64,000 nucleotides of DNA from Eledone cirrhosa (taxonomy: Eukaryota), in assembly GCA_964016885.1 (NCBI GenBank), contig OZ024740.1:78988001-79052000 (forward strand), written 5' to 3'. The notes beneath the pieces are model-generated. The model ran no database searches and was not told the DNA's origin. It worked only from the letters and a program-made list of their open reading frames with translations. The position numbers were made by a program, and so were the translations under genes. Positions 5,965-57,528 of the stretch are shown piece by piece (position 1 is the stretch's first letter; every line of letters begins with the position of its first letter).

Positions 5965-6294
5965 ATAAATGTAATCTGAGTTTTTCGAATACTAATAATA
6001 ATATGCAATTCATTTGCAATTATGGAAGCAAGCCTCATTTTTAAAGCTATGTCAGTAGAATGAGCCCCTCATTCTTGTTCTTGTGTTGGCATGTAAACAG
6101 AACTGCAGACACTAATGTTTCTGGGTATTACTCTTCATCAGTACAGTTGTCTGCAGTTTTTTTTACATGCCAACACAAGAGCAAGAATGAGGGGCTCACT
6201 CTACTGACATGGCTTTAAAAATGAGGCTTGCTTGCATAATTGCAAATGAATCAAATACTATTATTAATATTCGAAAAACTTGTATTACATTTAT
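5965..6294. repeat. Fold-back element with ~145-bp inverted arms around a hammerhead core
   Basis: 5965-6111 is the reverse complement of 6148-6294 with scattered mismatches; flanked by (TA)n. Confidence 0.9.
6101..6148 (-). ncRNA. Minimal type I hammerhead ribozyme motif
   Basis: Minus strand: AACUGUA-CUGAUGA-AGAGUAAUACCCA-GAAAC-AUUAGU-GUC|UGCAGUU; 7-bp stem I, GUC cleavage triplet, imperfect stem II. Confidence 0.7.
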
Positions 6295-6348
6295 TGTATT
6301 CAGCCATGTAGAGCGAAAATTATATATATATATTTATATATATATATT

Positions 6349-6399
<51 letters not shown>

Positions 6400-9300
6400 A
6401 TATATATATAATAAATTGAGAGAATAACCAAGTTAGACTTACAACATAATTTTATCCTACATATGTTTCAATCTGTAACAGCAGGCCATACCTCAATATA
6501 CATTGGATATTTGTCTGCTGGTCTACATACCTTGAGGAATTTAAAATATTGCTATAAGTAGCAACATTAAAATATGCAAATATATATATGTATATATTGA
6601 TGTAAGGAAGGGCATCCAGCCATAGAAAACCTGCCAGACAGTCCTATACGAGCGAGACACGGTCTTCCAACCAATCTTGCCTCAAGTGGGACAATTCTCG
6701 TCTAAATCCATGCTAGCATGGAAAATAGACATTAAACGATGATAATGATATATATATATATATATATATTAATTATATAGTTTCCATCAACAAAATTTAC
6801 TCACAGGTATTATTTTGTCTGTGACTACAGAAAAGACAGTGACCCAAGGTGCCATGCAGTGGGATAGAAAACAAGACTATGTGATTGCAAAGCAAATTGT
6901 TAACACACACAGCTAAGCTTACACCCACTGGTCACAAAAAGGTTAAGCTATCAATTTGTATTTTAAAATTACTTAATATTGTTGAATGAATTGAATATTC
7001 CATTCGGTCTGTGGCTTCTTTCACTATATTTTCTAGAATGTTAAACATCTGGTATTAGTCAGGTTTGCATATATAAACAATAATACAAAGTTGATTTGTC
7101 AAGGGAACTCCAAAGGTTTTAGCTTAAGAACATCTGCACCAGAAGTGTTTCTTTTAGTTAGATTTCTAGCTCTCCATTCATCTGGTCATCTATCATAATC
7201 TTAGCCAGTAGCTTTTCTTTCCAGTTAATGAACTTCCTCTCTGCTTTTTTCATTATAGACCTTAATCCTATATATTACTGTGATTCTATGAAACTCATTT
7301 ACCACATGACTTATGAAAGAAAGATTTTTTAGTGCTTCTAATAAATAATTTCTCTGAAATATTTATGGTAAAATAAAAAGTTTACATCACAGAACATTCT
7401 CACTTCCTACAAAAAACAAACAAAAAAGCCTTGCATTGAATTAATTTACTATAATAGAATAATTATTTTTAGGAGATCATTTCTCATTTCTTTATTTTAT
7501 AACATGATTTAATATCTCAGACCCTAGTGTTGAATTTTTTAATTAGTTAAGTTTCAGTTTCGTATAAAAATATTTCAACTGAGAATGAAGCTATCATATG
7601 ATTTTTGTCATTTTATATTCATTTTCCCATTCTAGCATCAATTAAACAAGCTGTTACAAACTAAATCAGTACTTAATTGGAGCTACTAGACAGGCCAGAA
7701 ACCATATCTTACATTAACTCTAGTTTTGTAGTTTTGGCATGGTTCCTACAGCTGGATGTCCTTCCTATTCCCAATCACTTTACAGTGTTAGCTGCATTTT
7801 ATTGTGGTGTTAGCCTTAGGATGGTGTGTCGTGTCCTTGGCACAGCTAAGAATCCTCATAAACTTTTGTTTAGCATGGTTTCTACAGTTGGATGCCCTGC
7901 CTAATGCCAGCCACTTTACAGAGTTATATATAATAAAATTCACTGATGAAAATCATCAATTACATGTCTATTTATCTATACTGGTATGGGTTAGTCTTTT
8001 TGAGACAGAATTCTATGGTTAGATATCCTTCCTGATAACAGCTCACACTTGATCATAACCATGTCAGGCTACTCAGAGATGTTTTCAAAATCAAATCCCA
8101 TACAATGGTTTTTTTCAGGCTCTAAAGCACCCAGACGGGACAACTCCTCTCCTATTTGTCACTCATTTGGAATGCCACATATTGCAACACAAACCCAGGC
8201 AGTGCCACTTGCAATGCAGAAGAGTAGAACATAACTAAATATCAGGCATTGACTGGTGGTTTCCTTTTATGCAAGTCACCATTGAAACCTCTGGTGTCCT
8301 TGATCCCCAGACAGCCATTTTCCTCCATTTAATCAGAATGAGGATGTCACACCAGCAGAAAGAGATCTGCAAGATGGAATATATACCATCCAACTGAGAT
8401 ACACTATTCAATCAGGTGTAGACTTTGCCCCCTACCCATTTCTATCTCATTTTCTTTCCTTTTTTCTTCCTGCCTTTTAGTCATTGTATTTATTATATTG
8501 TTCATACATGAGTTAAATATAATACACTATACAAAACAAACAAAAAGAATACACTAGCCCTTCTTTTTTATGGAGGGAAGTATTAATAGTAGTACACATC
8601 TAATGTACTACCATTCTTTGAGGGATATTTGGGTACTGTTTGTAGTATGTTGAATGACTACATAGTGATAATGAATGTTGGCTAAAGAATTATCATCAGT
8701 TTGTTGTGAAAATTTGCTAATAGAGAGATAGGAAGTTAAATATATGATTTGAGAAAATTGGATCTTATAAAAGAATTAACAAAATATGTGAAACTGAAAA
8801 TATGTAGCCAAAACCAATGCAACAGTGTATAAAACACACTCTTATATTGAAGAAGAAAAAAAGGAAAGAGGCTGATCCTCAGATCAAACCAAGGAAAATA
8901 TGTTTTCCTGGTCTTTCCATTGTTGATATTATCGATTGGTCACAACTCCTGGCAGAAGTGTCACAACTTGGAGATAAAAGATAAAAATATAGACAGAGCC
9001 AGAACAGATACTGTAAGACATTCCATCCAATTCTTTAACAATTCTGCCAATTCATCAACTCCAGACTGGTACTTTATTTATTGACCTTAAAACATTGAAA
9101 GGAATGGTTGACCTCAACTGGATTTGAAGTCAGAAACTGTGAAGCATTTAATTTGATGCTAAAACAACTCTACTATTTCAACACCAAAGAAATATTTGGG
9201 AAAAAGGTTACAGTAACATGTATGATTTTATTTGGTGTATATAATGTAGATAGATTTTGACATCAAATTTTGGGGTAAAAAGGTACATTGTGTACACTAA

Positions 9301-9989
9301 AAAATATGGTAATTTATATTGTAAGAACTATATAAGAATTAAAAAACTAGATTGAATATCAAACTAATAATTAAGATAGATAAGAGATGAAGATGTAGGT
9401 TAGCAATGGAATATCTAGAGCGAAAAACTTTACAGATTGAAAGATAGCAGATTGTAACTTAACTGTATGTGGATAGTACACCTTGATTAAAGCAAATATT
9501 CAGATAATTAAGGATATCAATTAATTTAGGAGTGATATTTATAGTCTACTTGGTTACGAGTTTTACATGCACTTTCATTTTATAGGCTATATGTTATCTT
9601 GATGACATAATTGGTACTGAAGAAAGTATGATGTTTTAAGATCTTGGAGAATGAACTGTGATGATTGAATCTCTCCAGCACTGAAGTTGTATACAGTCTG
9701 GTAATAGGTTATATTAGTAAAGTTGTTAGAGTGTTAAAAGGACTGCTTTGCATTGTTTGTTCTGACTCTCTCTACTACTGAAATAAAACTGGTGCCAAGC
9801 TGTTGTTCTTGCCATTTCCTTGGACATCATTGAGGGCATGGAGAAGGGAGGCTTGCATGCATGGGTAGCTGTTAGTTTTCCCTTTTCTATCATTATTACC
9901 ACAGGAAGTGCTCTGATGAGCTTTCTCTTTTGGTTCCAGATCACTTTTAGCCATCTTGCCTAACTTGAAATTCACAGTGTCTTCATTTG

Positions 9990-10220
9990 GATGCTGTTGT
10001 AGTTCCAGGAATAGGAAGTCTTTTTACAGTGGTAGCTATTTTCCTCGAACTGCCAGATTTTGGAACTCTTTTCCATCTCATTGTTTTCTTCCTTCTTATG
10101 GCCTGAACTCTTCCAAGTCTAAAGTAAATCCACTCCTTTCATCTTCATTTCTTCTTCTTCGTAGTCCCTGACACTAAGTGGTTTCATGCCTTGTTTGGGA
10201 CTTTCAAAATAATAATAATG
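9990..10220 (+). mobile_element. Old L2/Jockey-group LINE 3' remnant
   Basis: SYFPRTARFWNSFP motif followed by an (AAT)n tail; related remnants at ~27480-27990 and ~39330-39600 (SFIPRMSALWNSLP). Confidence 0.6.
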
Positions 10221-10620
10221 AATAATAAAAAAAAAAATAGAATAGAACAAAAACCTTAAACCTTTCCTTTGTCTGAGGCTTGGAGAGTGTCGTTCTTGGT
10301 GCAGATCTATTGTCTCATGAAACATATAGTGACTCTGGATGGATGGATGTTATATTATGTGTTTGTTTGTTGTTGTTCCCCAAGTGAACCTTGATCCAGC
10401 AAACCTATGATCAAAGGTATTCCAGCTATTATAAGCTCATCTTTTTTTTTTTTGTAAGGGGACTACATTATTTAATGTGCCCTACCTTTCTTTAATACGG
10501 CAGGGTTTTATTTGAAGAAGATTTGGCAGCCACTTGTAGTATATCAAATGTCTACATAGTCACCAGTAAGTTTGTAAGAGCAAGAGAGAGTCTATTGTAA
10601 AAATAGATGATGGATGTTAG

Positions 10621-12346: not shown

Positions 12347-12854
12347 GTGATTGAATAGAGGCAACATTATGTTGAGAGGACTTTTCAGTCCTGCGAGAGT
12401 ATAATAACCTCTGTAGTACTGGCTCCACAACAAAATGCACCCAGTGCACTCTTTAAAGTGGTTAACATTAGGAAGAGCACCCACCTATAGAAACCATGTA
12501 AATAAATTGATAAAAATATGTGGGACATGGTTTTCTGACCATTCTAGGAGGGTATTTACTCTGAATAAGAAATGACTTTGATAGTGACAGCCCATCCAAC
12601 CAATACCAACATGACTTATTGGCATATAAATTTTTTTTTTCTCAATTCAATAACTTTACAGTTATTATTTTTATTAAAGAAAAGCAATGAAGAATGACAT
12701 GATGCTGAATGAAAACAAAAGCAATATATATTGGCATTACACATTGAAGACTAATACATTTTTGTATTACTCTTCAATGTGTAACTCCAATAGTGTTGGC
12801 GGTGGTGCCAGCAATACTGTTGATGTCTCACCGCTACCATGACTACCAACATTA

Positions 12855-13028: not shown

Positions 13029-13987
13029 TTTCCAATTCAAGAAAGCATTTAAATATAAGTTTAAAAGCAGAGGCAACAGAGAAGAATTCTAGCTAGAGCC
13101 TATCAACAAAATCTCTACACGGTTTAAATACACAGAAAGTCTCTGATATTCGAATGGCTAAATGTCAGCTGAAGGGCACCCAGGAGTCGTGACCTGAATG
13201 CGGCCTGACTATCTTAGAGTGTATGGAATTAAGAGCTGAAGCACTCGCTTAGGGGAGTTCTTCTCTGAAGACCTAATGCTGTCCAGCTCTCCTGAGAGTT
13301 TCTTACCACTATATATTTTCAGCCTCATTCTGATGTCCCTCTACAACATATCCATAAATCAAAAGGGCCTCAAGTATATTTGTAATAAATCAACAGTATT
13401 CCAGCTTTTAGTTTGGCTTTTAACAGGTAAATATTATATTGTTTTGCTATTTATCATGAAACTCCACCCTACTAACACAGGCATGCCTGTGTACTTTTGA
13501 AGCAACTCCCTTATGATTTTATATTTTGTATCTGTTGGCATGACTGGATTGATGCTACTAGGGGTCTTGGGCTGGAAAACATTTAGGGACACCAAAACAG
13601 ACTTACGAGAAACTTAATAAAAATAAAATGTATATAAATATAGGTTTATACATAGAATGATGCTGAGATTCCAACATCAATCCATGCTGACCTTTAAAAT
13701 AAAGGTAGCACCCAAAGAAAGAAAAATGTATTTAATAACAATTATAATATCCTAAATTTTGACAAAAATGTTGTTTTACAGCTATATGTCAATATCTGTA
13801 TGCCTGACTCTCTATCTATAGTTAACTATTTATGAATGTATCTTTGGACAAGAATAAAATTGTAGGAATCTCAACTATGGAGATAGCTGTTTCTACATTC
13901 GAGATTCCTACAATTTAACAAAATATTTACACACATAATGCTCCAAATCATTTCATATCATGTTTATATATACTATCCTTTGATATA

Positions 13988-17500: not shown

Positions 17501-18035
17501 TCTATAGCTGGGTGGTTCAGAAGTTTGCATCGCAATCACATGGTTTCTGGCTCTATTCTTCAACTATAACCTTAGGTTAACCATTGTCTTGTGAATGAAA
17601 TTTGGTGGATGGAAACTGTGTGGAAGCCTGTTCTTTACATGTGCATTTGTCTCCATGTATGTCTTCACGTTGACACAGCTTAAACAACTTTTTCTTCATC
17701 TTCTTCTTCGTCGTCTTTGTCTTTTTCTTTTTTTTCGTCTTCTTTTCTCTCTCTCCCTCAGAAACAAGCTATAGTCAAACATGGAGAGATGAGTAGGGCA
17801 TCACTAAAGATGTGCCATATGATATCTCCCCTATGACTCCATTAGGTAAAACCAAGGAAGACATGGACAGTGGTAGTAAAGAGATGATGTACTGGATAGG
17901 ACTTGTCTAACCCATGAAAGTATGGAAAAATGAACATATTGTTAATAATAGATATAGAGATCTTTCAAAAAGAACTAAAAAAATCAGTAAGAATGTACTA
18001 GCAAAAATATTTCCATTTTTATCATAAAACACTAT

Positions 18036-18385
18036 CATCATCATCATCGTCGTTTTAACGTCCATTTTTCCGTGCTTGCATGGGTTGGACAGGTCCTTTT
18101 CAGCACAACATCTCTCCACTCATCATGTTCTTTTGTCATCTCTTCCATGAGACTCAACAATTTGAGATCATCTCTCTCCATTTCTGTGCAGGTCTTCCTT
18201 CATTTACTTATACTGCCCTAGCACTTCTTCGCATGCCTATACCAATGCAGTCTTCTCTTTTGCACAGCACTTTTGATTCCTCTTAAAATCCAGTTTCTCT
18301 CTCAGTTCATCCAAGCTCTGCTATTCTCATACATTTACATTACACAACCAATGAAGCATGGTTACTTCATTTCTCTCCAGCCTAT
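18036..18385 (-). mobile_element. Older RTE 3' fragment
   Basis: (CAT)n, then 'aacgtccatttttccgtgcttgcatgggttggac' and decayed C-terminal coding sequence. Confidence 0.75.
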
Positions 18386-18419: not shown

Positions 18420-20359
18420 TATAGAGGGGCCAGCAGTAAGTAAGGCAATCAAAGATATGAAGATGGGGAAGGCAACCGGTCCATCTGGTATAGCTGCCGA
18501 GATGCTGAAGGCATCTGGGTCTGTAGGTCACACTATAACCACACGTATTGTTAACCAAAAGATTGGTGCAGTAGCATCATTGTCAACTGCTACAAAGGTA
18601 AAGGCGATGCACTAGATAGAGGAAACTATAGAGGTATAAATTTGATGGACCAGGTCATGAAAGTAACAGAAAGAGTTATAGCACAGTTGATTAGGGACCG
18701 GGTTAAAATAGACGAGATGCAATTTGGGTTTGTACCAGGAAGAGGCACCACTGATGCCCTCTTCCTTGTGAGGCAGTTACAGGAAAAGTACCTAGCTAAA
18801 AGTAAGCCACTCTACTTGGCATTTGTCGACCTTGAGAAAGCCTTTGACAGAGTTCCACGTACTGTAATCTGGTGGGCTCTTAGAAAACTAGGAGTAGATG
18901 AATGGCTTGTGAAAGCGGTACAAGCCATGTATAGGGGAGCAGTCAGCAAAGTTAGGATTAGCAATGAGTATAGCGAGGAATTTAGCGTACAGGTTGGGGT
19001 CCACCAGGGCTCTGTTCTTAGCCCCCTCCTGTTCATCATAGTCCTGCAGGCAATAACGGAGGAGTTTAAGACCGGATGCCCATGGGAACTCCTGTATGCT
19101 GATGACCTCGCACTCATAGCTGAATCTATGGTAGAACTAGAGAATAAATTCCAAACTTGGAAGCAGGGACTAGAAAGAAAGGGTCTCAAAGTCAACATGA
19201 CAAAGACTAAGGTCCTTGTAAGTAGACGAGAAAACAGAACCCAGATCCCCTCAGGGAAATGGCCTTGCTCAGTATGTAGGAAAGGTGTAGGTAGGAACTC
19301 CATTCTCTGCCCCAAATGCAAACAATGGGTACACAAGAGATGTAGCGGGATCTCAGGAAGCTTAATTAAGAATGTAGGCTTCACATGCAGCAGCTGTACT
19401 GGGACAGCAAGCAGCAAACAGCCACAGGAAAGAAGTACCACCAATCTCTGGGAGGGCTCTGTAGAAACAGTAGACAGCTTCTGCTACCTAGGTGACCGAA
19501 TTAGCAGCGGAGGTGGGTGGTCATAAAGTACAATAACTAGGGTAAGAACGGGATGGAAGAAGTTTAGAGAACTACTACCACTGCTAGCTGCAAAAGGCTT
19601 CTCCCTCAGAATGAAAGGCAGACTGTATGATGCGTGTATCCGAACAGCAATGTTGCATGGTAGTGAGACCTGGGCGCTGAAGGTGGAAGACTTACGTAGA
19701 TTAGAAAGAAATGAAGCCTGCATGCTCCGATGGATGTGTAACAGTAATATACGTGAACGACAAAGCATAAATGAATTGAGAGAGAGACTGAGCATAAGAG
19801 GAATCAAATGCTGTGTGCAGGAGAGGCGGTTGCGCTGGTATGGACATGTGATGCGTATGAAGGATGACAGCTGCATAAAAAGGTGCAGAGCACTAGAAGT
19901 TGATGGAAACCACGGAGTGGGGAGACCCAAGATGACCTGGGATGAGGTGATAAAAGCCGACCTTACCCAATTACACCTCTCAAAGGCGATGACACACGAC
20001 CGTGACCACTGGCGTCACGCAGTAATACAGAGTACCCGACCTCCCATGGGTACAAGCTGAAGCATATAGACAATAGGCCCCCACACCCCCCACCGCAAGG
20101 TGGTCGTGGAGGTGCCAACGGCAAAAAAGCACCCAGCCCACACTGTAAAGTGGACGTGTAGGCGCCACGAAAAAGCACCCAACACTCACTGTAAATGAGG
20201 TTTGTGTTAGGAAGGGCATCCAGCTGTAGAAATCAAGCCAAATCAGTTCCTGTATGAGCAAGGCATGGTCAGCCGACCAGACACTGCCCACAACAGGACA
20301 ACCCGTCTAACCCATGCTAGCGTGGAAGAACGGACGTAAAACGGTGATGATGATGATGA
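18420..20359 (+). mobile_element. 5'-truncated, relatively young RTE LINE with 3' UTR and (GAT)n tail
   Basis: ORFs 18642-19526 (RT motifs, YADD, C4HC3 finger) and 19611-20060 are in one frame, split by TAA at 19524; tail gatgatgatgatga at ~20345-20359. Confidence 0.97.
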
Positions 20360-23939: not shown

Positions 23940-26637
23940 TTAGGACAGTCTGTGTCTCCTCAACCACACTACGGGGCACCCAACAGTCCACTGTAACAGA
24001 ACATATCTAGTTAGGACAGTCTGCCTCTCCTCAACCACACTACAGGGCACCCAACAGTCCACTGTAACAGAACATATCTAGTTAGGACAGTCTGCCTCTC
24101 CTCAACCACACTACGGGGCACCCAACAGTCCACTGTAACAGAACATATCTAGTTAGGACAGTCTGCCTCTCCTCAACCACACTACAGGGCACCCAACAGT
24201 CCACTGTAACAGAACATATCTAGTTAGGACAGTCTGCCTCTCCTCAACCACACTACAGGGCACCCAACAGTCCACTGTAACAGAACATATCTAGTTAGGA
24301 CAGTCTGCCTCTCCTCAACCACACTACGGGGCACCCAACAGTCCACTGTAACAGAACATATCTAGTTAGGACAGTCTGCCTCTCCTCAACCACACCACAG
24401 GGCACCCAACAGTCCACTGTAACAGAACATATCTAGTTAGGACAGTCTGCCTCTCCTCAACCACACTACGGGGCACCCAACAGTCCACTGTAACAGAACA
24501 TATCTAGTTAGGACAGTCTGCCTCTCCTCAACGACACTACAGGGCACCCAACAGTCCACTGTAACAGAACATATCTAGTTAGGACAGTCTGCCTCTCCTC
24601 AACCACACTACAGGGCACCCAACAGTCCACTGTAACAGAACATATCTAGTTAGGACAGTCTGTGTCTCCTCAACCACACTACGGGGAACCCAACAGTCCA
24701 CTATAACAGAACATATCTAGTTAGGACAGTCTGCCTCTCCTCAACCACACTACAGGGCACCCAACAGTCCACTATAACAGAACATATCTAGTTAGGACAG
24801 TCTGCCTCTCCTCAACCACACTACAGGGCACCCAACAGTCCACTGTAACAGAACATATCTAGTTAGGACAGTCTGCCTCTCCTCAACCACACTACGGGGC
24901 ACCCAACAGTCCACTGTAACAGAACATATCTAGTTAGGACAGTCTGCCTCTCCTCAACCACACTACGGGGCACCCAACAGTCCACTGTAACAGAACATAT
25001 CTAGTTAGGACAGTCTGCCTCTCCTCAACCACACTGCAGGGCACCCAACAGTCCACTGTAACAGAACATATCTAGTTAGGACAGTCTGCCTCTCCTCAAC
25101 CACACTACGGGGCACCCAACAGTCCACTGTAACAGAACATATCTAGTTAGGACAGTCTGCCTCTCCTCAACCACACTACGGGGCACCCAACAGTCCACTG
25201 TAACAGAACATATCTAGTTAGGACAGTCTGCCTCTCCTCAACCACACTACGGGGCACCCAACAGTCCACTGTAACAGAACATATCTAGTTAGGACAGTCT
25301 GCCTCTCCTCAACCACACTACAGGGCACCCAACAGTCCACTGTAACAGAACATATCTAGTTAGGACAGTCTGCCTCTCCTCAACCACACTACGGGGCACC
25401 CAACAGTCCACTGTAACAGAACATATCTAGTTAGGACAGTCTGCCTCTCCTCAACCACACTACGGGGCACCCAACAGTCCACTGTAACAGAACATATCTA
25501 GTTAGGACAGTCTGCCTCTCCTCAACCGCACTACAGGGCACCCAACAGTCCACTATAACAGAACATATCTAGTTAGGACAGTCTGCCTCTCCTCAACCAC
25601 ACTACAGGGCACCCAACAGTCCACTGTAACAGAACATATCTAGTTAGGACAGTCTGCCTCTCCTCAACCACACTACAGGGCACCCAACAGTCCACTGTAA
25701 CAGAACATATCTAGTTAGGACAGTCTGCCTCTCCTCAACCACACTACAGGGCACCCAACAGTCCACTGTAACAGAACATATCTAGTTAGGACAGTCTGCC
25801 TCTCCTCAACCACACTACAGGGCACCCAACAGTCCACTGTAACAGAACATATCTAGTTAGGACAGTCTGCCTCTCCTCAACCACACTACAGGGCACCCAA
25901 CAGTCCACTATAACAGAACATATCTAGTTAGGACAGTCTGCCTCTCCTCAACCACACTACAGTGCACCCAACAGTCCACTGTAACAGAACATATCTAGTT
26001 AGGATAGTCTGCCTCTCCTCAACCACACTACAGGGCACCCAACAGTCCACTGTAACAGAACATATCTAGTTAGGACAGTCTGCCTCTCCTCAACCACACT
26101 ACAGGGCACCCAACAGTCCACTGTAACAGAACATATCTAGTTAGGACAGTCTGCCTCTCCTCAACCACACTACAGGGCACCCAACAGTCCACTGTAACAG
26201 AACATATCTAGTTAGGACAGTCTGCCTCTCCTCAACCACACTACAGGGCACCCAACAGTCCACTGTAACAGAACATATCTAGTTAGGACAGTCTGCCTCT
26301 CCTCAACCACACTACAGGGCACCCAACAGTCCACTGTAACAGAACATATCTAGTTAGGACAGTCTGCCTCTCCTCAACCACACTACAGGGCACCCAACAG
26401 TCCACTGTAACAGAACATATCTAGTTAGGACAGTCTGCCTCTCCTCAACCACACTACGGGGCACCCAACCGTCCACTGTAATAGAACATATCTAGTTAGG
26501 ACAGTCTGCCTCTCCTCAACCACACTACAGGGCACCCAACAGTCCACTGTAACAGAACATATCTAGTTAGGACAGTCTGCCTCTCCTCAACCACACTACA
26601 GGGCACCCAACAGTCCACTATAACAGAACATATCTAG
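23940..26637. repeat. Tandem array of 38 copies of a 71-bp unit
   Basis: Unit ttaggacagtctgcctctcctcaaccacactac(a/g)gggcacccaacagtccactgtaacagaacatatctag; 2698/71 = 38. Confidence 0.98.
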
Positions 26638-29771: not shown

Positions 29772-31948
29772 ACTTATTACCCATCCTATGTTCCTTCATC
29801 CTATTCCACCCACAAACACATCTCACAAGGGACAAATCATCACCTCCTCCCATATAGGTTAGAGAGGACTCTTCAGTTGAGTCAATGACAGACAACCTCC
29901 CTAGTGCTGGTGTTGCAATAAAACATACCCAGTACACTCTGTAAAGTAGATGGTGTTAGAAATATCTTCCAGCCCTAAAAACCATGCCCAAATGGTTGAG
30001 AGAACCCTTCAGTCATAGTGCAACAACCTCTCTTGTGCTGGTGCTACAAAAGCATCCAATACATCCTGTAAAGTTCTGCTATAAAAGGGTTGAGTGGACT
30101 CTACATTTGTGTCAAAGACATAACGACCTCTCTAGTGTTGATGCCTAGAGTACAATAGAGGTTAGTAGCTCTACGTATTGACTTAGTGTTTGGTGGCCCT
30201 TCCAATCTTTGCTAACAGAGAAAATAAATTAAATGAATAATGGTTTTTGATTTAGGCACAGGGTCAACAATTTTGTGAGAGGAGAAGTCAATTAAATCGA
30301 CCCCAAAAAGTTGAAAGACAAAATTGACCTTGGCAGGATTTGAACTCAGAATGTAAATGCCACAAATCATTTTATCTAATGCTCTAACGATTCTGCCATT
30401 AATGGTTTCTAGTTTTGGGAGAGAATAAAGTCAATTAAATCAGCTCCAGTGCGTGACTGGTAGTTCATTTTATTGACCCCAGTTGAATGAATGGCACAGT
30501 TGATTTTAGTAGAGTTTGAACTCAGAATGTAAAGCAATGCTTACCTTGTTTGTTAGGAATACCTACAATTGGTGGAAATGTATTCAGTTAATTCGGAGAA
30601 GAAAGCATGTCTGTGAAGTTTGTGGCTGTAATGTGATTGAATGTTTTGTCAGTTAGCTGAATGCCTTGTTTGTAAATGGTGTGTGTGTGTATTTATATAT
30701 ATATGTCATCATCATCATCATTGTCGTTTTAACATCTACTTTCCCTGCTAGCAAGGTTTGGATGGGTCAATATAGACCAAGTTAGTACTGAAGCAGAGTC
30801 ACTGATCTTCCAGACAGGCCAAGGACTTGTGCAGTTATGTATGATCTCATTCCATCGAATGCTCAGGAGAGGTTGTCATGCCTTTGACACAACTGAGGGT
30901 CCTCCTATCCCTATATATATATATACACATATATGCCGTTATTATTTAGTAGAAACAATTATTTAGACCCAGGTCAGTTTTATTGAACAGACCTATGATT
31001 AAACCTTTTGGTACTATATTTCTAATGAGAGAAACTGCCTGCAATTTCCAAATCATTTTGGAAATAATGAAGAATTTGGAAGGATTTTAGCAATACAATT
31101 AACGTTCTCATTATTTATCTGGCGTTTGGAGTACAATTTAATATGATCCTTATATAGAATTATGGGGAGTGAGGGTTAGATAAATATAAACACTTCAATA
31201 TAAATAACTTTTTATTGTAAAACCAGGGGCAGTTTGTTATGGCCAGACTATCTTTTTGTATATATAGAACTACATTGTTCAATAATCCTTTCTCTTTTTA
31301 AGATAGTAAAGTTATGGTTAATGAAACGTGGCTGCTATTTGTAGCAGGTTAAGAAACCATTTAATATTGAAAACAATAGTAACTATTTTTATCAATAAAA
31401 AGTTATTTTAAAACCTTAATATTATTTTCAACTTTTTCAAATATCACAAAACTTTCCACAAACCTGATTCAATCCTCTGTATACAAGCTGACGAGGAAAT
31501 CTCTTAGCAGTCATTGTACCTGCTTGAAATAGCAGCAAAATCTCCCTCTAATTACATCCTACCAGTTGTGTAGGTAGAGGTGGCACTTTTGGTCTATAGC
31601 ATAAACTAGCTATGGCACTTCATCATATATTGAAAAATGTGGTTCTAAATGCATTATGTCTAAAAATAAAATTGGATGGTCATGGTCGGAGTGCCTTTGA
31701 TTATAATTTTGCTTAGTCAAAGTTAACCAGCAACAACGATACAACTCTAGAAAATATCTTTTGTAAACCAGTTAAAATGGCTCCACTTATAAATTTTATA
31801 ACTCATTTTAGGGGAGACTACTCTTACATTATTAAAATGGATAGATGTCCTTGAATTATTATTATTTATTTTTTATTTAATAGTCCGAGTGTACCAAGAA
31901 ATTGAGCGAGATTGCTTCCAAAGTTTTAAAGATTAGATATCGTTACAT

Positions 31949-33214: not shown

Positions 33215-33291
33215 TATAAAGAAAAAAAGATGAAATCGAAAATGCAACTGGACTCCAGTTGCATTTTCGATTTCATCTTTTTTTCTTTATA
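33215..33291. repeat. Perfect palindrome, 38-bp arms, 1-nt spacer
   Basis: tataaagaaaaaaagatgaaatcgaaaatgcaactgga-c-tccagttgcattttcgatttcatctttttttctttata. Confidence 0.95.
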
Positions 33292-33506
33292 CTTTCACTC
33301 GTGTAGGACACCTCGGTTATTTTTCATTTTGTAAAAAAACCTCACTTTCTAATAATATATATATATATATATATATATGGATTGAGAGAGACGAGGTTGT
33401 GTGGTTACTGATAACGAGTGTTAGAAAGTAAAGGGTTTGTGTCCCTTTACTTTCTAACACTATATATATATATAATATTTTGGTATCATTATTTAATATT
33501 TCAAAG

Positions 33507-33683
33507 GGCGATGGATTGGTAGAGGGTCGGACGCCATGCTTTGATGTATAGAGTTACGGCCCTTGCCATTCTGAGTTCAAATCCCGCCAAGGTTAACTTT
33601 GCCCTTCATCATTACGGGGTCGATAAAATAAAGTACCAGTAATACACTGGGTAATTGCTAGCCTTGTGCCTAACGTAGAAACA
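33507..33683 (+). mobile_element. SINE family A with 18-bp TSD
   Basis: attatttaatatttcaaa at 33488-33505 and 33684-33701. Confidence 0.9.
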
Positions 33684-34735: not shown

Positions 34736-34977
34736 GTGTGTGTATATATATATGTATGTATGTGTGTGTGAGTGCATGTATATATATATAAGAGAGAGAG
34801 AGATATGTAAAATCCTGACCACGGTGCTAAGAAATTTCAACACAAGCTGAAACCACTTGGCACCAAGGTTGGTATTTTACATATCTCCTAACCCACTCTG
34901 CATCTCCCCATGCATTGAGTACTCCCTTGATTAGTGGTCTCCCTGGTCTCAGCACAGGAATGTCTCTCTTTCTCTCT

Positions 34978-35016
<39 letters not shown>

Positions 35017-35037
35017 TTCAAAATATCAATAAATGAG

Positions 35038-35217
35038 AAATATTATCATAACCAAAGTATATATTTTATTATACATATTTCAAAGGTACAATGGTGTTTA
35101 AGTAAAAAAAATATAAGAGATTGGTTATACGACATACCCCTAAAGTCTTGAATCTTCAATCCATTGTACCTTTGAAATATGTATAATAAAATATATACTT
35201 TGGTTATGGTAATATTT
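35038..35217. repeat. Fold-back element (~57-bp arms) made of the 3' half of a hammerhead-family sequence
   Basis: ...tacatatttcaaaggtacaatgg / ccattgtacctttgaaatatgtataataaaata...; between (TA)n tracts. Confidence 0.85.
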
Positions 35218-35254
35218 TGAATAATATAGATACTCAAGATAAATTAACTTTTGG

Positions 35255-35291
<37 letters not shown>

Positions 35292-44192: not shown

Positions 44193-44379
44193 TGTTTCTA
44201 CTTTTGGCACAAGGCCAGCAATTATTCCAGTGCATTACTGGTACTTTATTTTATCGACCCCGCAAGGAAGAAAGGCAAAGTTAACCTCGGCGGGATTTGA
44301 ATTCAGAATAGCAAGGGCCGTAACTCTATGCATCAAAGCATGGTGTCCAAACCTCTACCGATACTGCCAATCCACCGCC
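44193..44379 (-). mobile_element. SINE family A with 18-bp TSD
   Basis: ataaataactaatataat at 44175-44192 and 44380-44397. Confidence 0.9.
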
Positions 44380-45196
44380 ATAAATAACTAATATAATGGA
44401 ATGAGAAAACGTTGCTACTCAACATATGCATCTATGGTTCGAATAAAGGGAACAGTGAAAAGAACCCTCTACACTCAGCCAGCATCGTTGTCACTATTCT
44501 TATTAAACTTAAATATATATTACACCAGTCGTTTTAATGTCTTACCAGAGGTATTTCAACAAGACACTTTACTTTATTATTAGAGTTATAAACTTTCTTT
44601 CATTATATTTTATCAAACCAAGGGCGGTGGATTGGCAGTCTTAAGTTCAAATCCCGTTGAGGTTAGCTTTGTCTTTCATCCTTAAGGGGTCAATAAAATA
44701 AAGCACCAGTCATACACTGGGGGTCAATTTAATCGACTTTCCCCCCTCCCCCAAAATTTCTGGCCTTGTGCCTAAATCAGAAACCATTATATTTTTTCAA
44801 ACTCACAGAAATATGAAAGACAAAGTTGACCTTGGAGGGTTTCTGAGTTCAAATTCTACAGTTGTCAACAGTGTCATCTCTTATCCTTCAGAGGTCAATA
44901 TAATAAAGTACCAGTCAACTATTGGAGTCGATTTAATTGACAACCTCTCTATGTAAATTTCTCTCTGGTATTGTGCTAATTATTCTAATTATAATTCTAG
45001 CTTGAATGACAAAGACTAGTGACAGATGAGAGGGATGTGAGACAACATATCTGTGCTATCTCAGCTAAAGCACTGAATGACAGCAATGACTGTGGTTAGT
45101 TTTCCATGTAAATATTATGGTGTGATAATTTCAATTGAAATACACATGATTGTTGGCAGTGATGCAGGAGTCTTTAAGTGAGAATGTGGTTGAAAT

Positions 45197-46998: not shown

Positions 46999-47789
46999 TA
47001 ATGATGGTATATTATATATAAACAATTTGATAAATTTGTTTTGAGTTCCAAAACCAGAGGGAAGATGCAAGCAAAATAAGCTTAAAGTAGACATTGACAC
47101 TCTCATCGTATATATATATATATATAGTGTATGGTAAAAACCAGCTAGACCATAACCCACCAGGGTACTCAATACTTGGGGTAGTAGAGTGGGTAATATG
47201 AAAAGATTCAGGACCCCGACGGCTGAGTTCCGGCCATTTCGACAGCTAGATCCGTCCGGAACTCAACTGTCGGAACTATATATATATATGAATATTTTCA
47301 TATATATATATATAGTGTAAAGTGGTCATGTAGGTATTAAGACAAAATGTACCCAGTACACACAGTAAATGTGGTTGGTGTTAGGAAGGACATCCAGCCA
47401 TAGAAACCTGGGCAGAAACAGTTCTGTATGAGCAAGGCATGGTCATCTGACCTGGCTTGTCTCACAATAACACAAGTCGTCTAACCCATGCTAGCATGGG
47501 AAAATGAACATTAAATGATGATGTTGATGATGATACATATATATTGAAATCATCTCGATTTAGTTGTTCTATAAAAGCTCAATCAAAATTAGATGCAAAA
47601 AATATGTTTCAGAGCATACTCATACAATATTATTATGGAAACAACAATAATTATATTTTGAAATATAACAGGGCAGAAAATAATCAAGACAGGAGTTATC
47701 ACTTCCATTACTATACATATGTATATATAGAAATAAGGTGTTCACTCTAACATAGCTGTATACATATATATATATATATGTGTGTATGT

Positions 47790-47963
47790 TGTATATCTAG
47801 CGATATACGGTATGTTTATGAATAAACATTTGAAAGCCTTCAGCTGTGAATTTTGGAAACTGATGACTAGAGCAATCTAGCAGATTCTATCAGTTTCCAA
47901 AATTCATAGCTGAAGGCTTTCAAATGTTTATTCATAAACATACCATATATCGCTAGATATACA
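47790..47963. repeat. Fold-back element with ~75-bp arms and a truncated hammerhead at its centre
   Basis: 47790-47864 vs 47889-47963; centre CTGATGA-CTAGA-GCAA-TCTAG. Confidence 0.9.
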
Positions 47964-48053
47964 AAGACACACACACACTATATATATATATGAAGTGTTT
48001 CCGTAGGAAAGGTAAAGGAAAAGAGAGTGCTCTATGTAGGCTACAGAGCTTTT

Positions 48054-48183
48054 TAGTTATGTAATAAACAACATAAGATAATTATTTCATTTACCAAAGT
48101 CAGATGTCTGTGCCAGGCTCGTCTGTCTTCGTGAAACCTTTAGTAAATGAAATAATTAGCTTATGTTGTTTATTACATAACTA
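48054..48183. repeat. Fold-back element with ~46-bp arms
   Basis: tagttatgtaataaacaacataag.taattatttcatttac / gtaaatgaaataatta.cttatgttgtttattacataacta. Confidence 0.9.
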
Positions 48184-49331: not shown

Positions 49332-49383
49332 CTTTTTTGAATATGTTTTGCAAAATTTCTTATCTGAAAATGTGTGTTGAAGC

Positions 49384-49653
49384 ATATATTGTTATACTTT
49401 GGGAGGGTCATGCTGCCAATAAAAACACACGCACCTGTTGGTTTTCACTTCTATTTATTATAAATTTCTGGTTGGCTGGTTGTTTGGATAACCGGATGGT
49501 TATTTATATATCGTCAAAGCTCTTTTATCACACATTCTGTGACCTCCTCAGTGACTGGGTTTTTATTTTATGTCTCTCATTTGTTCTGTCCTACACCATC
49601 TTGTTTTTGTGTGTTGTGTGACAGCATGACCCTCCCAAAGTATAACAATATAT
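49384..49653. repeat. Element with perfect 32-bp terminal inverted repeats and an internal decayed hammerhead-like motif
   Basis: atatattgttatactttgggagggtcatgctg / cagcatgaccctcccaaagtataacaatatat. Confidence 0.88.
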
Positions 49654-50021: not shown

Positions 50022-50334
50022 AGTTTGTGCATAGAGGTCAATACACTTGACTGTTCCTTTCCTCCCAAATTGCTGGCTTTGGGCCTAATTGGAAAACCAA
50101 TATTTGTGGTGGTAGATTAGCTGAATAGTTAGAGCATCAGATAAAATGCTTCATTGTATTTGTTCCAGTTCTTTATGTTATGAGTTCAAATCCTGCCAAG
50201 GTCAACTTTACTTTTCTTCCTTCCAAGGTCTACAAAAAAAGTACCTGTCAAATGCTAGGGTCTGTATAATCAACTTTCCTTTCCTCCAAAATCTGTTGGC
50301 TTAGTACCAAAATTAGAAACCATTATTATTGTCA

Positions 50335-50713
50335 GCGGTGAATTGGCAGTATCGGTAGAGGGTCGGACACCATGCTTTCCAGCATACTTACATCCCTTTA
50401 CGGTCTGAGTTCAAATCCTGTCGAGGTTAACTTTGCCTTTCATCCTTACCGGGTCGATAAAATAAAGTACCAGTAATGAACTGGGTAATTGCTGGACTTG
50501 TGCCTAACGTAGAAACAATTATTATTGTCAGGTGGATTGGCAGTATCAGTAGAGGGTCGGACACCATGCTTTGACGCATGGAGTTACGGGTCTTGCCATT
50601 CTGAGTTCAAATCCCGCCGAGGTTAACTTTGCCTTTCATCCTTACGGGGTCGATAAAATAAAGTACCAGTAATGTACTGGGTAATTGCTGGCCTTGTGTC
50701 TAACGTAGAAACA
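50335..50713 (+). mobile_element. Head-to-tail pair of SINE family A copies
   Basis: Copies at 50335-50517 and 50531-50713; ATTATTATTGTCA at 50322, 50518 and 50714. Confidence 0.92.
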
Positions 50714-51602
50714 ATTATTATTGTCAACTTTACCTTTCATCCTTAGAGAGTCGATAAAATAACGCAGGAGTAACACACTGGGGCCGATTTAATCAACTTT
50801 CTCCTCCCGCCAAAATTGTTGGCTTTGTGGCTAAATCAAAATCCCAGTATTTTATTCATACCTTCAGTAGAAAGGATACATGTAGGTTTTGACTTCAAAT
50901 TTGAGGATTAAAAAAATGTCATACACACAAAAAAAAGATTTTTTCAAATATTAAGTGTCAGAAAGAAAATCATCCATTTTAAAGGGTTCTATCTTTTAGT
51001 ATAAGTTGACATTAGAACTTTTTGTTGTGTTACAAATACAATCTTAATGAAATAATAAATAATTTCAATAAATTCTTCTAAATTCTTAATTAAAATGCAA
51101 TATATTTCATTAGAAATATGATCATGAAAGGGCTGATGAAGAATCTATCGAAACATCATATATATGTTCACATAAAAATCATTGTTTCATTTTTTTTTAG
51201 TTAGGAAGGAAATTAAAAATGTGTACCCTATGAAACAACAACCCCACTATACCTACTTACACACACACACACCTGTTTCATGCTGAATTCATTAAATTGG
51301 TTCTTTAGAGATAAGACAACTATGTCTCTAATAACCTCCCTAGCTTCACACAGCACGAAGTAAAGTTTTACAAACTGCTAATCCAGTTGTTTCCTTTACC
51401 AAACCAGTTTGTCTCCAACTACTCACACTATCTACAGCTGCTGCTGTCAGTGGTCAAAGCAATCTCAGCCACTCTAAGAATCTTTACAATAATGTCAGGC
51501 CTTATACACAACTACTTCATTATTCTAGTCTGTTTTCCTCTGCTAATAATCCCCCAACGTCATAAAGAAGGTATGTATTCTCACTCTTATCTTTATTATA
51601 TT

Positions 51603-53073: not shown

Positions 53074-53169
53074 GAATAGATACTAAAGTATTTGTTTCAT
53101 TGAACTTCATATATCAAACCACTCAGTTGAGGGATATACTGTTTATGCAGGACATATATAGATTTTATC

Positions 53170-53587: not shown

Positions 53588-54045
53588 TGTGTATAGATAT
53601 ATATATACATACCTTATATATATACATACCTTATATATATACATACCTTATATATATATAAAATAATAAAATAAGATGCTGAGGTTACATATATTGTTGA
53701 AGCATAATAATTATTTCTACGGTTCTCCATGCAATCGAGATGTCCTTCATGCATTTGCTGTTGATTATGAGAATGGTTTCCTCAGATAGAGCATTGGCCT
53801 TGCAATCGAAAGGTAGTGAGTTCAATTCTCAGACCGGGTGATGTGTTGTTTCCTTGAGCAAGACATTTTATTTCACATTGCTCCAGTTTACTCAGCTGTA
53901 GAAATGAGATGATAGGGACTGGGGTCCCTATCATTCCACTGCAAAGTGGTCGTGGAGGTGCCACGGCAAAAAAGCACCCAGCACTCACTGTAAATGAGGT
54001 TGGTGTTAGGAAGGGCATCCAGCTGTAGAAATCATGTGCCCTCAC

Positions 54046-54364
54046 CATATATATATATATATACCATATATATATATACCATATATATATATATATGGCC
54101 TTGCAATCAAAAGGTAGTGAGTTCAATTCTCAGACCGGGTGATGTGTTGTTTCCTTGAGCAAGACACTTTATTTCAGATTGCCCCAGTTTACTCAGCTGT
54201 AGAAATGAGATGATAGGGACTGGGGTCCATATTACATTGGTATATATATATACCATATATATATATATATATATGGTATATATATATATATATATATGGT
54301 ATATATATATATATATATATATATATACCATATATATATATATATGGTATATATATATATGTAT

Positions 54365-54397
<33 letters not shown>

Positions 54398-54416
54398 TAT
54401 ATATATATATATATAT

Positions 54417-54482
<66 letters not shown>

Positions 54483-54587
54483 ATATATATATATATATAT
54501 ATATACCATATATATATATATATACCATATATATATATATATATATACCATATATATATATATATATATACCATATATATATATATA

Positions 54588-54622
<35 letters not shown>

Positions 54623-54735
54623 ATATATATATATATATATATACCATATATATATATATATATATACCATATATATATATATATATATATACCATATATA
54701 TATATATATATATACCATATATATATATATATATA

Positions 54736-54778
<43 letters not shown>

Positions 54779-54799
54779 ATATATATATATATATATATA

Positions 54800-54856
<57 letters not shown>

Positions 54857-54889
54857 CTATATATATATATATATATACATACCATATAC
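54046..54889. repeat. Long (TA)n microsatellite punctuated by TGG/CCA, interleaved with a duplicated SINE segment
   Basis: TA runs broken mainly by 'tgg' (54238-54420) and then by 'cca' (54480-54885); 53794-53930 is duplicated at 54096-54230. Confidence 0.95.
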
Positions 54890-55025
54890 CGATGTAATAT
54901 TATGGAGAGCACTCAACGTAATGAAACTCACCCGTCTTCGTTTGTTTAGTTGGTGGTGCGAGTACGGAGTTAATTATTATAAAAAACAGGAGGTTGGACT
55001 GGTGTAATTCCTTAAAAGGTTTATT

Positions 55026-55083
55026 ATACTATGATCATTTCACTGACCGGATTCAGTATGAATCCGGTGACATCATCAGGTAT
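55026..55083 (-). ncRNA. Minimal type I hammerhead ribozyme motif with extended stem II
   Basis: Minus strand: AUAC-CUGAUGA-UGUC-ACCGGAUUCA-UAC-UGAAUCCGGU-CAGU-GAAA-UGAUCA-UA|GUAU; palindromic loop III. Confidence 0.7.
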
Positions 55084-55329
55084 TCAAAATATAACAAAGG
55101 AATATAATAGACAAAATCCATGGGGCTGAAAATCAGAGACATGAGGGCGACCGAACATTTAGCAGCTTCTATCCCGGTCGTCCGCTCTCAAGGGTTGGGA
55201 ACCACTATTGTAAAGTATGATGTGAAGTGACATTTGACAGCTGTTTATAGCAGGTTGAGCAAACCTGTAAAGGCCCCCTTATTGTTTCTTGGTTTCGTTG
55301 ATGTTTTTGTCAGGGGATAAATCAGTGTA

Positions 55330-55720
55330 GATATTTTTGTAGTCAGTAGTTTCATCCAAAGGATCAGATGTGATAGCCTTTCAGGGCCTACCCAGATCAG
55401 AGAGATGGGAGAAGGTTTTAAAGATAATTTGATAAGAGTATTGTGGGTTAATATTCAATTTTAAATCTTTGAATGCCAATGGAGTATGTAGTATAATGGG
55501 AAGGGAGATTCCAGATGGCAAGTAGTTTCAAAATAAAACAGAATTGGGGTAAGAGAGCTTTGAAGAATAGTGGTGATAGGAAATATTAATAACAGAGATG
55601 TGAATGTAATAAGGTGAAAAGTTAGAAGTAAATGTGTGTTTGGGGATAGGGGTAGAGGTATGTTTAGCATTGTACACTTTAATAAAAACCCCACTTTAAC
55701 CAACTGAGCCAAAATGATGT
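55330..55720 (-). pseudogene. Decayed Penelope-like RT fragment
   Basis: IPLPLSPNTHLLLTF (cf. LPxNTLLVTxDVxSL) and a downstream LTHN remnant; lies upstream of the 55026 hammerhead on the same strand. Confidence 0.35.
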
Positions 55721-56299
55721 AGAATTTAGTCTATAACATCTAAATTGGGTGGAGTTTCTAAATTGAATGTTCACATCATCAATCTCACAGTTATGTGTCA
55801 ACTAGTGAAGTAATAGAGATTTGTGTGGGTGTATCAAATATTTCACTTCAACAAGCCTTATCTCAATCATACTTCAAACTTGCCATCTGGGGGCAGTTAA
55901 TGATACCTTCTAGTTTCGTTATCTTTACATGTAAGACATCTGATAGGTACTAGTATTGAAAATACGGCTTCATTTATATATATATATATATATGTATATA
56001 TTATTTGAAATAGAATTATTAATATAAGATAACTCCAATCACATATGTGCATAAATATATATATATACATATATATGTATGTATGTTTGTATATATGTTT
56101 GTGTGTATGTGTATGTATATATATATGTATATGTCATCATCATTATTTTACGCCCGCTTTTCCCTGCTTGCAAGGGTGGGACGGGTCCTATTCAGCACAG
56201 CATCTCTCCACTTGTCACGGTTCTTCGCCATCTCCTCCGTGAGCTTCAGCAATCTGAGGTCTGCTCTCACTACCACCGCCCATATTTAAATATATACAC

Positions 56300-56340
<41 letters not shown>

Positions 56341-56423
56341 AATACTTATATACATATCATCATCACCATCATCATCATCGTTTAACGTACATTTTCGATG
56401 CTAGCATGGGTTAAACTTTCCAG

Positions 56424-57035
56424 TTGAGAGATATCCACACGATTATCGTTCTCTTCTCTACTTTTGCCTCACCTCACCTTGAATACTGTTGTCCACTGTG
56501 GTCTCCCCACATGAAACAAAGTATCATGAAAATGGAAGCACCTCAAAGGTCAATCACAAAAAAGATAGATGGCATGACAGGCCTTGACTACTGGGATCGA
56601 CTAGAAAAGTTGAAACTCTGTTCTCTCCAACATTATCTGCATGATGTGAAAAATATTCTATCAGCATTGCCCAAATGATGTTTGCATCACCTTTAAAGTA
56701 CACCTAAGGCGTGGGCCCTGTGCTATCTGCCCACAACAAAAATCAAACTCGCATCTCATAACAACATTAAGGCACAATTATTTCACCTCAATTGGCCCCA
56801 CTCTCTTTAACATTACACCAAAACACATTAAAACAGAAACAGACCCCATAAAATTCTTTGGACAAATTCTTTTAAAAAATCCTGGATGAACCTCCCACAC
56901 CCAGATATGTTTTCGTAAACAATAACTCTCAATAACTTGAGTGGGCCATGATGTCCAAATCCTGATTTGAAAGACTTCGCCAGGTGGTGCCATTAAGTTA
57001 GACATGGCCTGGGCCAATACTGGCCGAAACCTATC
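56424..57035 (+). mobile_element. CR1/L2-group LINE C-terminal fragment
   Basis: PHLEYCCPLWSPH...MEAPQRSITKKIDGMTGLDYWDRLEKLKL. Confidence 0.85.
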
Positions 57036-57467
57036 AAAGTTATATATATACATATTCTTTGTTTGAAGGCACCAGAACCCACCCACACCTCTTCCTCTGT
57101 CAGTAGGGACAATTCTATCAGTAGGGACAATTCTGTCAGGCCTGCATGTTAAGTCACACAAGAAAGCCAGGAGTTAGACTTAGCTGCCAGAGGTTATTTG
57201 AGGCACTATTTATACAGGGAGCTCATCCCCACTACCACCCCTTGGAATATGTATATATGTATATATGTTATAGTGCACCTGAGCACTTTACACAATAATT
57301 TCATTATTATCATTATTATATATGCATATAAGCAAAGAGATATTTAATTTGTTGGTTATTCAACAAATTTATTTATTTATAACAGATTCGAAGCACTTTA
57401 CAAAATTCTTATGGAGTATAATATCAATGATAATAATAAATGGAAACTATCTTTATAAAACCATATT

Positions 57468-57528
57468 TATTTTATTATATATATTTCAAGGGTACCAAAA
57501 TGTTGGTACGCTTTCATCAGATAAAATA
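57468..57528 (-). ncRNA. Minimal type I hammerhead ribozyme, best-preserved copy
   Basis: Minus strand: UAUUUUAU-CUGAUGA-AAGCGUACCAA-CAUU-UUGGUACCCUU-GAAA-UAUAUA-UA|AUAAAAUA; 8-bp stem I, 10/11-bp stem II, palindromic loop III. Confidence 0.85.

Follow-up and report, generated by a model that had tools for sequence, protein, structure and literature searches.

How short inverted repeats come to stand beside TA microsatellites, and why several of them contain parts of a hammerhead ribozyme, is the question raised by a 64,000-nucleotide stretch of the Eledone cirrhosa genome (assembly GCA_964016885.1, contig OZ024740.1, positions 78,988,001 to 79,052,000, forward strand). This stretch, called the window below, is AT-rich and has many TA tracts. 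A previous reading made from the letters alone (the sequence-only reading) had listed eleven inverted-repeat units (fold-backs) here and had regarded them as small non-coding derivatives of Penelope-like elements (PLEs). The analysis reported here indicates that most of the units are 5'-truncated, 5'-inverted, head-to-head insertions of Penelope-like 3' ends. Our explanation as a whole, to which we assign a probability of about 0.8, is that each of these inverted 3' ends occupies one of two fixed positions next to (TA)n, and that the pairs likely arise when the GIY-YIG/reverse transcriptase (RT) protein of the element nicks both target strands, with one complementary DNA (cDNA) primed per RT start site.

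Fold-Back Units and Their Association With TA Tracts

Self-BLAST of the microsatellite-masked window detected 14 fold-back units, whereas 10 dinucleotide shuffles yielded no more than one apiece. Ten of the eleven listed units were recovered, among them those at 5965 (arms of 147 nt, 90% identity) and 47789 (76 nt, 97%); the unit at 47210, whose inverted arm of about 23 nt was too short for the scan, is visible in the sequence. The statement that most units abut (TA)n stood for eight of the ten recovered, in which a TA hexamer lies within about 20 nt of an arm end, and failed for 13857, where there is no TA. The unit at 35038 also meets TA when its true ends are applied.

As an unselected sample, 100 stretches of 10 kb (1 Mb) were taken at round coordinates outside the window in the 3.0-Gb assembly, and the fold-back statistics refer to the first 400 kb of it. 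This part contains 76 fold-backs, compared with 6-10 in each of three shuffles, and they cover approximately 5% of the sequence, some of this being other than PLE-derived. The preference for TA was upheld, since 45 of the 76 fold-backs have TA directly at one side or at both, compared with a null mean of 15 (maximum 26); TA at both sides is seen in only 7.

Families With Two Discrete 3' Ends

Nine of the eleven listed units belong to multi-copy families that have a fixed 3' end at (TA)n. Searches of the species' own genome, whose figures are first-look candidates and not copy numbers, gave 3067 candidates for family A (unit 5965), 1379 for B (57468), 1844 for C (55026), 1775 for D (47790), 404 for E (35038), 446 for K (33417) and 73 for J (34799), while the units at 33215 (family H), 47210 (I), 48054 (F) and 49384 (G) each match many family loci. 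Family I is the most frequent in the unselected sample, with 28 ends per Mb. For 12729 the only candidate was the unit itself, and for 13857 one weak relative was found.

In every family the 3' end takes two discrete positions, here called the inner end and the tail end. TA or a similar microsatellite follows each of them; the 5' ends vary. The tail measures from about 22 nt in family A to about 140 nt in family C. Ends of different families also stack side by side in the same TA tracts, as seen at loci L079, L161 and L229 and in the window at 33215-33461, 34799-35256 and 47127-48183, and this stacking explains the clusters in the window.

Fold-Backs as One-Off Insertion Products

Across 20 family A loci the 5' ends of the two arms differ nearly every time. 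Resemblance to the window copy was the basis on which most of these loci had been picked; such a choice should have favoured shared junctions, yet the junctions differ. Arm lengths of fold-backs range from about 30 to 400 bp and the arms differ by 1-25%, and in the unselected 1 Mb there are 55 solo ends and 31 inverted pairs. Because arm length and junction differ per copy and solo ends outnumber pairs, the fold-backs do not appear to be mobile units, and the earlier proposal that they are small elements moving as such is not sustained; the fold-backs themselves are likely dead products. The hallmarks of miniature inverted-repeat transposable elements (MITEs), namely fixed terminal inverted repeats at both ends, uniform length and a target duplication, do not describe them, as the ends are asymmetric, the arms are variable and solo copies dominate. 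A MITE label would thus be a misannotation, as the sequence-only reading had anticipated.

One Arm of Each Pair Usually Carries the Tail

Among the 31 inverted pairs of the unselected 1 Mb, 29 combine one tailed arm with one arm that has no tail, one is two-tailed and one is unclassed (binomial p 3e-8 vs. 0.5). The solo ends of the same sample comprise 24 tailed, 26 without tail and 5 unclassed. In 205 selected loci, 83 of 92 classified pairs are of the one-tail kind (11 unclassed), and over all 330 loci, after removal of duplicates and of pairs interrupted by a long TA tract, 114 of 125 classified pairs are (91%; 9 unclassed). The unselected, selected and overall tallies overlap and are not independent. 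An independent choice of start site would lead one to expect about 50% mixed pairs.

The bias is found at every spacer length, with 85/93 at up to 20 bp, 11/12 at 21-200 bp and 17/18 above 200 bp, and also in the youngest pairs, whose arms are at least 95% identical (23/24). By eye, the 5'-longer arm in family A pairs is the one without tail in about 15 cases and the tailed one in about 12. A surface-level literature search returned no paper that counts a tail bias or applies twin priming to PLEs; PLE reviews of 2005-2006 may state it.

Hammerhead Motifs

A strict type I hammerhead descriptor matched the window at 57520 and 55079, both on the minus strand, against a mean of 0.03 and a maximum of 1 in 150 shuffles; these cores confirm the two stand-alone hammerheads previously placed at 57468 and 55026. 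The sequence-only reading had also assigned whole or partial cores to four fold-backs. Three of them have one: 5965 a whole motif, 35038 a half and 49384 a mutated core. The fourth, 47790, was rejected, as its CTGATGA at 47860 is antisense to the family direction and is followed by neither GAAA nor stem I. The 5965 motif, with its core at 6141, lacks one stem II pair in this copy and was therefore called only after stem II had been relaxed. In the predicted fold of the unit its cut site pairs with the inverted arm, so that the ribozyme is likely disabled. At 35038 only the 3' half is present (GAAA, stem III, UH and the stem I strand), and family E copies contain the whole motif; at 49384 CUGAGGA is present and GAAA is mutated, and family G keeps the core. 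Further 3' halves, overlooked before, lie at 48133 and within 47210, with a possible one at 34849 (by eye). Two other candidates were discarded: CTGATGA...GAAA at 51133, which has no stem I and no family match across the motif, and the CTGATGA of family K, for which no workable stem II or III exists. In Rfam searches the window gave only sub-threshold miRNA-like hairpin matches; no hammerhead was reported, either there (E up to 10) or in five family loci (E up to 0.5).

In the unselected 1 Mb, 53 strict hammerheads were found in 16 clusters (about one motif per 19 kb), 48 with a C3-G8 and 5 with a U3-A8 core; shuffles gave 0-2 each (n = 10), and six mismatched cores gave one match in total. 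A (TA)4 lies within 300 nt downstream of 50 of the 53 (null mean 16, maximum 29) and within 240 nt upstream of 23. Hammerheads are enriched inside fold-backs over controls, as had been expected: 7 of the 20 in the first 400 kb lie inside one, where chance would give 1.0, and two of these seven share a unit.

On the sense strand, the descriptor finds whole hammerheads in families A, B, C, E, F, H (a U3-A8 core) and I, and one with a 1-bp stem III was recognized by eye in family G; they lie about 100-180 nt inside the family 3' end. None of 29 family D arms passes the descriptor, a degenerate U3-A8 candidate occurring farther 5' in other copies, and 17 family J arms contain no whole motif. The core of family I varies, with a C3-A8 mismatch in some copies (L060:9230, L291:815) and U3-A8 in others, and its stem II region spans about 56 nt. 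Covariation in family A is weak (10 sequences, 93% paired, two pairs with double changes) because the sequences are close to each other. We also considered a pile-up of family A 5' ends at the cut site and rejected it: 5 of 16 tandem starts fall at +43 to +48 (two of them near-duplicates), yet only 4 of 43 arms fall within +30 to +50 when the set is chosen by 3' end alone. The absence of a pile-up in this latter set agrees with uncut RNA being the main template in vitro (PMC11167929, in part; here and below, "in part" marks a citation that refers to the available portion of the source). Taken together, the hammerheads of the fold-backs appear mostly to be cut off, mutated or, by prediction, paired away.

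Links to Penelope-Like Coding Elements

PLE-like frames read from family loci served as queries for coding links, and clades were judged by motif. In L065, L062 and the array L056-L058, a broken RT/GIY-YIG frame lies between family B ends; the order is inverted end, frame, long 3' untranslated region (UTR), hammerhead and end. What appears to be an RT/GIY-YIG remnant of the Hydra type is present in longer family B copies, whose 3' UTR is about 1.4 kb long. In L065 the remnant has a CxCX5C-type linker with its last cysteine mutated, CxxC and CxH are present and CCHH is absent; family B remnants end before the RWK/DKT region. The array L056-L058 (contig C1706) is a 7.5-kb tandem repeat whose unit consists of a family B element with an interrupted frame plus several other hammerhead ends.

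A stop-free RT/endonuclease frame of 656 aa related to the family B remnant lies 37 kb before the window (L074:2559-4526, plus strand), between inverted ends. Its CxCX5C linker, CxxC and CxH are intact and it has no CCHH; its homologs, of which the two named ones are cnidarian hypothetical proteins, add RWK and DKT, and DKT was seen in L064. Pfam assigned no family to L074 or L064, and among solved structures nothing significant was found; the Atlas look-alikes of L074 include GIY-YIG and RVT_1 clusters, which we take as a lead only.

Family G ends flank a remnant with RT, CX4CxxC and GIY-YIG in L161, supported by L029 and L081, and family H follows such a remnant in L177. In both remnants the linker is of the CX4CxxC form and the GIY-YIG core contains a pair of cysteines; their frames are broken. 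Judged by these motifs, the family B remnant and L074 may be classed as Hydra-type and the G and H remnants as Neptune-type. The PLE frames located close to copies of families A and C (L018, L024, L080 and L077) were rejected as their coding parts, being separate insertions by position and orientation.

The expectation that each family would be linked to an RT/GIY-YIG frame was thus borne out for B (57468), G (49384) and H (33215) and not for the other eight families. The Penelope origin proposed for the units is upheld by the two discrete ends, the inverted 5'-truncated copies and the remnants joined to B, G and H, and we consider PLE identity very probable.

Non-Coding Head-to-Tail Units

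The family A unit is 435 nt long, with a longest frame of 59 aa. In 25 loci chosen by the upstream part of the family (top matches only), this part is directly preceded by the family's own 3' end and tail in 16 (two near-duplicates). Two consecutive units with intact hammerheads were not found among these loci; three span two hammerhead positions, and in each the first motif appears, by eye, to be mutated. A look-up of RNA data sets listed none that contains the 435-nt unit, which speaks neither for nor against its expression. Family C stands head-to-tail in 5 of 25 loci; the period, derived from three of these (3.2-kb loci), is about 2.05-2.1 kb. The family is 97-98% alike across the hammerhead region, and no PLE protein match lies inside the unit. 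The idea of small non-coding Penelope derivatives therefore holds for families A (5965) and C (55026), which seem to fit non-autonomous PLE derivatives of the retrozyme type, and does not extend to B, G and H, which are 3' ends of protein-coding elements.

Individual Units and Neighbouring Features in the Window

The family A fold-back (5965-6316) has an arm without tail at 5965-6148 (minus strand) and a tailed arm at 6148-6316 (plus strand; tail 6295-6316), with TA on both sides. Its predicted type I hammerhead occupies 6101-6148 on the minus strand, with the core starting at 6141, a wobble-palindromic stem III and a predicted cut between 6108 and 6107. Two hairpins follow that were assigned to no family, the single-copy 32-bp one at 12729-12792 and the 30-bp one at 13857-13916. 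In the next cluster, family H (33219-33353, plus strand) consists of a fold-back at 33219-33287 and a tail to about 33353, this copy being without the family's U3-A8 hammerhead, which is located 5' of the tip, and family K (33379-33461) of a fold-back at 33417-33461 with the left-arm tail at 33379-33416. Family J (34799-34960, plus strand) comprises a fold-back at 34799-34887 plus tail, the possible 3' half hammerhead mentioned above lying near 34849. The neighbouring family E fold-back (35011-35256) has the 3' half hammerhead in both arms (plus strand 35174-35192), a right-arm tail and TA at both ends.

Farther on, a family I 3' end (47127-47277, minus strand) carries its tail at 47127-47196, an inverted stub of 23 nt and the 3' half of a hammerhead whose stem III has 4 bp. 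The family D unit (47738-47964) is a fold-back at 47789-47964 with a left-arm tail, and that of family F (47993-48183) a fold-back at 48054-48183 with the left-arm tail at 47993-48053 and a 3' half hammerhead at 48133-48150 (plus strand). The family G insertion (49343-49652) combines a long tailed arm on the minus strand, with the hammerhead core at 49551 and its mutated GAAA, and a 45-bp inverted arm without tail. The two solo 3' ends, both on the minus strand and with whole hammerheads, belong to family C (54888-55191, core 55079, part of the tail) and family B (57330-57545, core 57520, tail, TA on both sides). The family C end runs into a compound TA tract of 640 bp (54241-54881) with a 23-bp higher-order period.

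The window also contains a tandem array of a 71-bp unit at 23940-26637 (38 copies, 98% matches) and pieces of an RTE-like long interspersed nuclear element at 748-1239, 3132-3692, 4329-5003 and 18555-20060, the last with a 323-aa frame at 18555 that matches RVT_1 and a PHD finger. Further inverted repeats, absent from the earlier list, are situated away from TA at 17880-18115, 31202-31408 and 44227-44720. A short interspersed repeat, common and about 196 bp long, is present at 50314-50726 and near 33520, and also adjoins many PLE ends. Weak immunoglobulin-domain matches in the plus-strand frames 58527-59048 and 61719-62165 might represent host-gene exons near the 57468 element.

Discussion

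The pattern to be explained is a pair of inverted 3' ends, one with and one without tail, beside (TA)n. Such a tract would offer the same sequence on both strands. The GIY-YIG/RT protein of the element might nick both strands, each nick priming one cDNA, and the two cDNAs would use different RT start sites, one distal and one proximal. Joining of the 3' ends of the two short cDNAs via microhomology would then leave a palindrome with the tail on one side, and non-coding units would borrow the PLE protein in trans. A Poseidon-clade PLE has been reported to cut and extend both target strands in vitro with a preference for AT-rich sites, to start reverse transcription at two sites that bound the tail, and to form a predicted dimer (PMC11167929, in part). 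On balance we favour a coupled event in which both strands of the target act as primers, using the two RT start sites already known, at even odds at the very best. More tentatively, and with some doubt, one may think of a coupled twin priming in which one dimeric RT-endonuclease complex opens both (TA)n strands and delivers the distal start site to one and the proximal start site to the other. Inverted pseudo-long terminal repeats (pLTRs) and the one-sided tail would then be one event, of which such genomes would hold tens of thousands of miniature records, including the 435-nt and 2.1-kb non-coding passengers.

Several points weigh against this explanation. The evidence for the priming step is the genomic pattern, and in vitro the choice of start site showed no difference between the strands (PMC11167929, in part). 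Eleven of the 125 classified pairs (9%) break the one-tail rule, 7 with two tails and 4 with none, in addition to the unclassed ones. No whole hammerhead was found for families D, J or K, and no coding link for A, C, D, E, F, I, J and K, while that of family H comes from the single locus L177. The units 12729 and 13857 have no clear family and stay outside the explanation, and target-site duplications are unreadable inside TA tracts.

The closest competitor to coupled priming is that a single cDNA folds back and primes itself, or that an antisense transcript does so, after which the endonuclease resolves the hairpin and leaves the tail on one side. Self-priming has indeed been proposed from palindromes at inverted junctions (PMC3846280, in part), and the tail has been ascribed to resolution of an intermediate by the endonuclease (PMC8557442). 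Moreover, in 93 of the 125 pairs the fold passes through the tip with a spacer of at most 20 bp, and the tips of family I often fall within the element's own stem II hairpin. Yet a first strand without tail cannot give a tail to its own copy, and it is the tail-less arm that is 5'-longer in about 15 of 27 family A pairs and that carries the whole coding remnant in L065. Simple snap-back would account for at most the other half, and we regard self-priming as rather unlikely. That the one-tail bias arises after insertion, start sites being independent and pairs with matching ends, whose palindrome extends into the TA flanks, being deleted more often, is quite improbable. Long palindromes are unstable, and the 11 matching pairs show that such insertions exist, but this loss should fade with long spacers and in young pairs; the bias is equally strong at spacers above 200 bp and in arms at least 95% identical, which counts against it.

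The other two alternatives concern the nature of the units. The sequence-only reading saw in them very small non-coding derivatives that are possibly mobilised in trans. As non-autonomous elements they would be transcribed and would move as whole hairpins, and the similar size of many family A fold-backs as well as the non-coding, head-to-tail organization of families A and C would suit this. We consider it improbable, given that junctions vary even among loci selected for likeness, that solo ends exceed pairs, and that B, G and H ends run on into coding remnants. Inverted repeats beside TA could also be MITEs of a TA-targeting DNA transposon, and short palindromes are a known assembly artefact. 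Against both stand the asymmetric ends, with TA at one arm end in 45 of 76 fold-backs and at both in only 7, the range of arm lengths and divergence, the dominance of one-armed copies and the joined RT/GIY-YIG remnants. For the nine assigned units this view is refuted, and as a general account it is hardly credible, although it may apply to 12729 and 13857.

Most components of the picture have precedents. The Hydra clade of PLEs, which has a C-terminal endonuclease and is marked by a CxCX5C linker, CxxC, CxH, RWK and DKT and by the lack of CCHH (Craig et al., 2021; PMC8557442), resembles family B in the hammerhead near the 3' end and the (TA)n targets, and the family B remnant and L074 in the linker, CxxC/CxH and the missing CCHH; DKT was seen in the homologs of L074 and in L064. 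An inverted 5'-truncated copy was noted there for Penelope-13_HM, and a (TA)n-targeting Hydra element of Octopus bimaculoides, Hydra-1_Obim, is included (PMC8557442, supplementary file 1). Family B, likened to Hydra by motifs, differs in its 3' UTR of about 1.4 kb and in that most copies are tiny ends without coding sequence. The G and H remnants may be compared with Neptune/Nematis-type PLEs (CX2-5CxxC linker, CCHH endonuclease) by their CX4CxxC linker and the cysteine pair in the GIY-YIG core; this assignment is by motif on broken frames, and H uses a U3-A8 core. As in published hammerheads, stem III is short and palindromic, an unpaired base starts stem II, positions 3 and 8 covary as U3-A8, and motif pairs lie 100-700 bp apart on opposite strands, although in the available portion of that source these pairs are tied to no tail rule (PMC4209133, in part). 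In a study of octopus repeats, the word "hammerhead" is absent from the available portion (PMC13282606).

Non-LTR retrozymes (LTR, long terminal repeat), which are proposed to derive from and depend on PLEs (PMC7229834, in part; bioRxiv 10.64898/2026.07.22.740005, in part), are built, like families A and C, of non-coding units in head-to-tail order, each containing a single type I hammerhead. In contrast to their long arrays, family A occurs as one or two units with PLE-type tails and inversions, and family C, at about 2.1 kb, is far above the retrozyme range of 170-400 nt. Two consecutive units with intact hammerheads serve there as the criterion of an "active" retrozyme (bioRxiv 10.64898/2026.07.22.740005, in part). 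The pLTRs of Adineta vaga and Drosophila Penelope are likewise head-to-head inverted, with a tail on one and palindromes at the junction (PMC3846280, in part), and PAc of Anolis has two RT start sites bounding the tail and AT-rich targets (PMC11167929, in part). Compared with these, the fold-backs are reduced to 45-350 bp, are dense and can be counted (91% one-tail), and their tails, from about 22 to about 140 nt, span a wider range than the published 30-40. Inverted pLTRs, tails, hammerheads and TA targeting are thus already published, and the addition made here is the count of one-tail pairs.

The formation of tandem and inverted PLE structures has been stated to be undefined (PMC8557442). 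Strict hammerheads in this genome would number approximately 160,000, an extrapolation (53 per Mb x 3.0 Gb) and not a count. Neither Rfam nor Pfam recognized the examples tried, so sequence of this type can readily end up labelled as MITE or left unclassified. The feature is real and abundant and is mostly explained by known kinds of PLEs and retrozymes. A countable one-tail bias, in which either arm can be the longer, yields a prediction that can be put directly to the existing in vitro PLE assay, and through this single quantitative pattern a mechanistic question becomes accessible to experiment.

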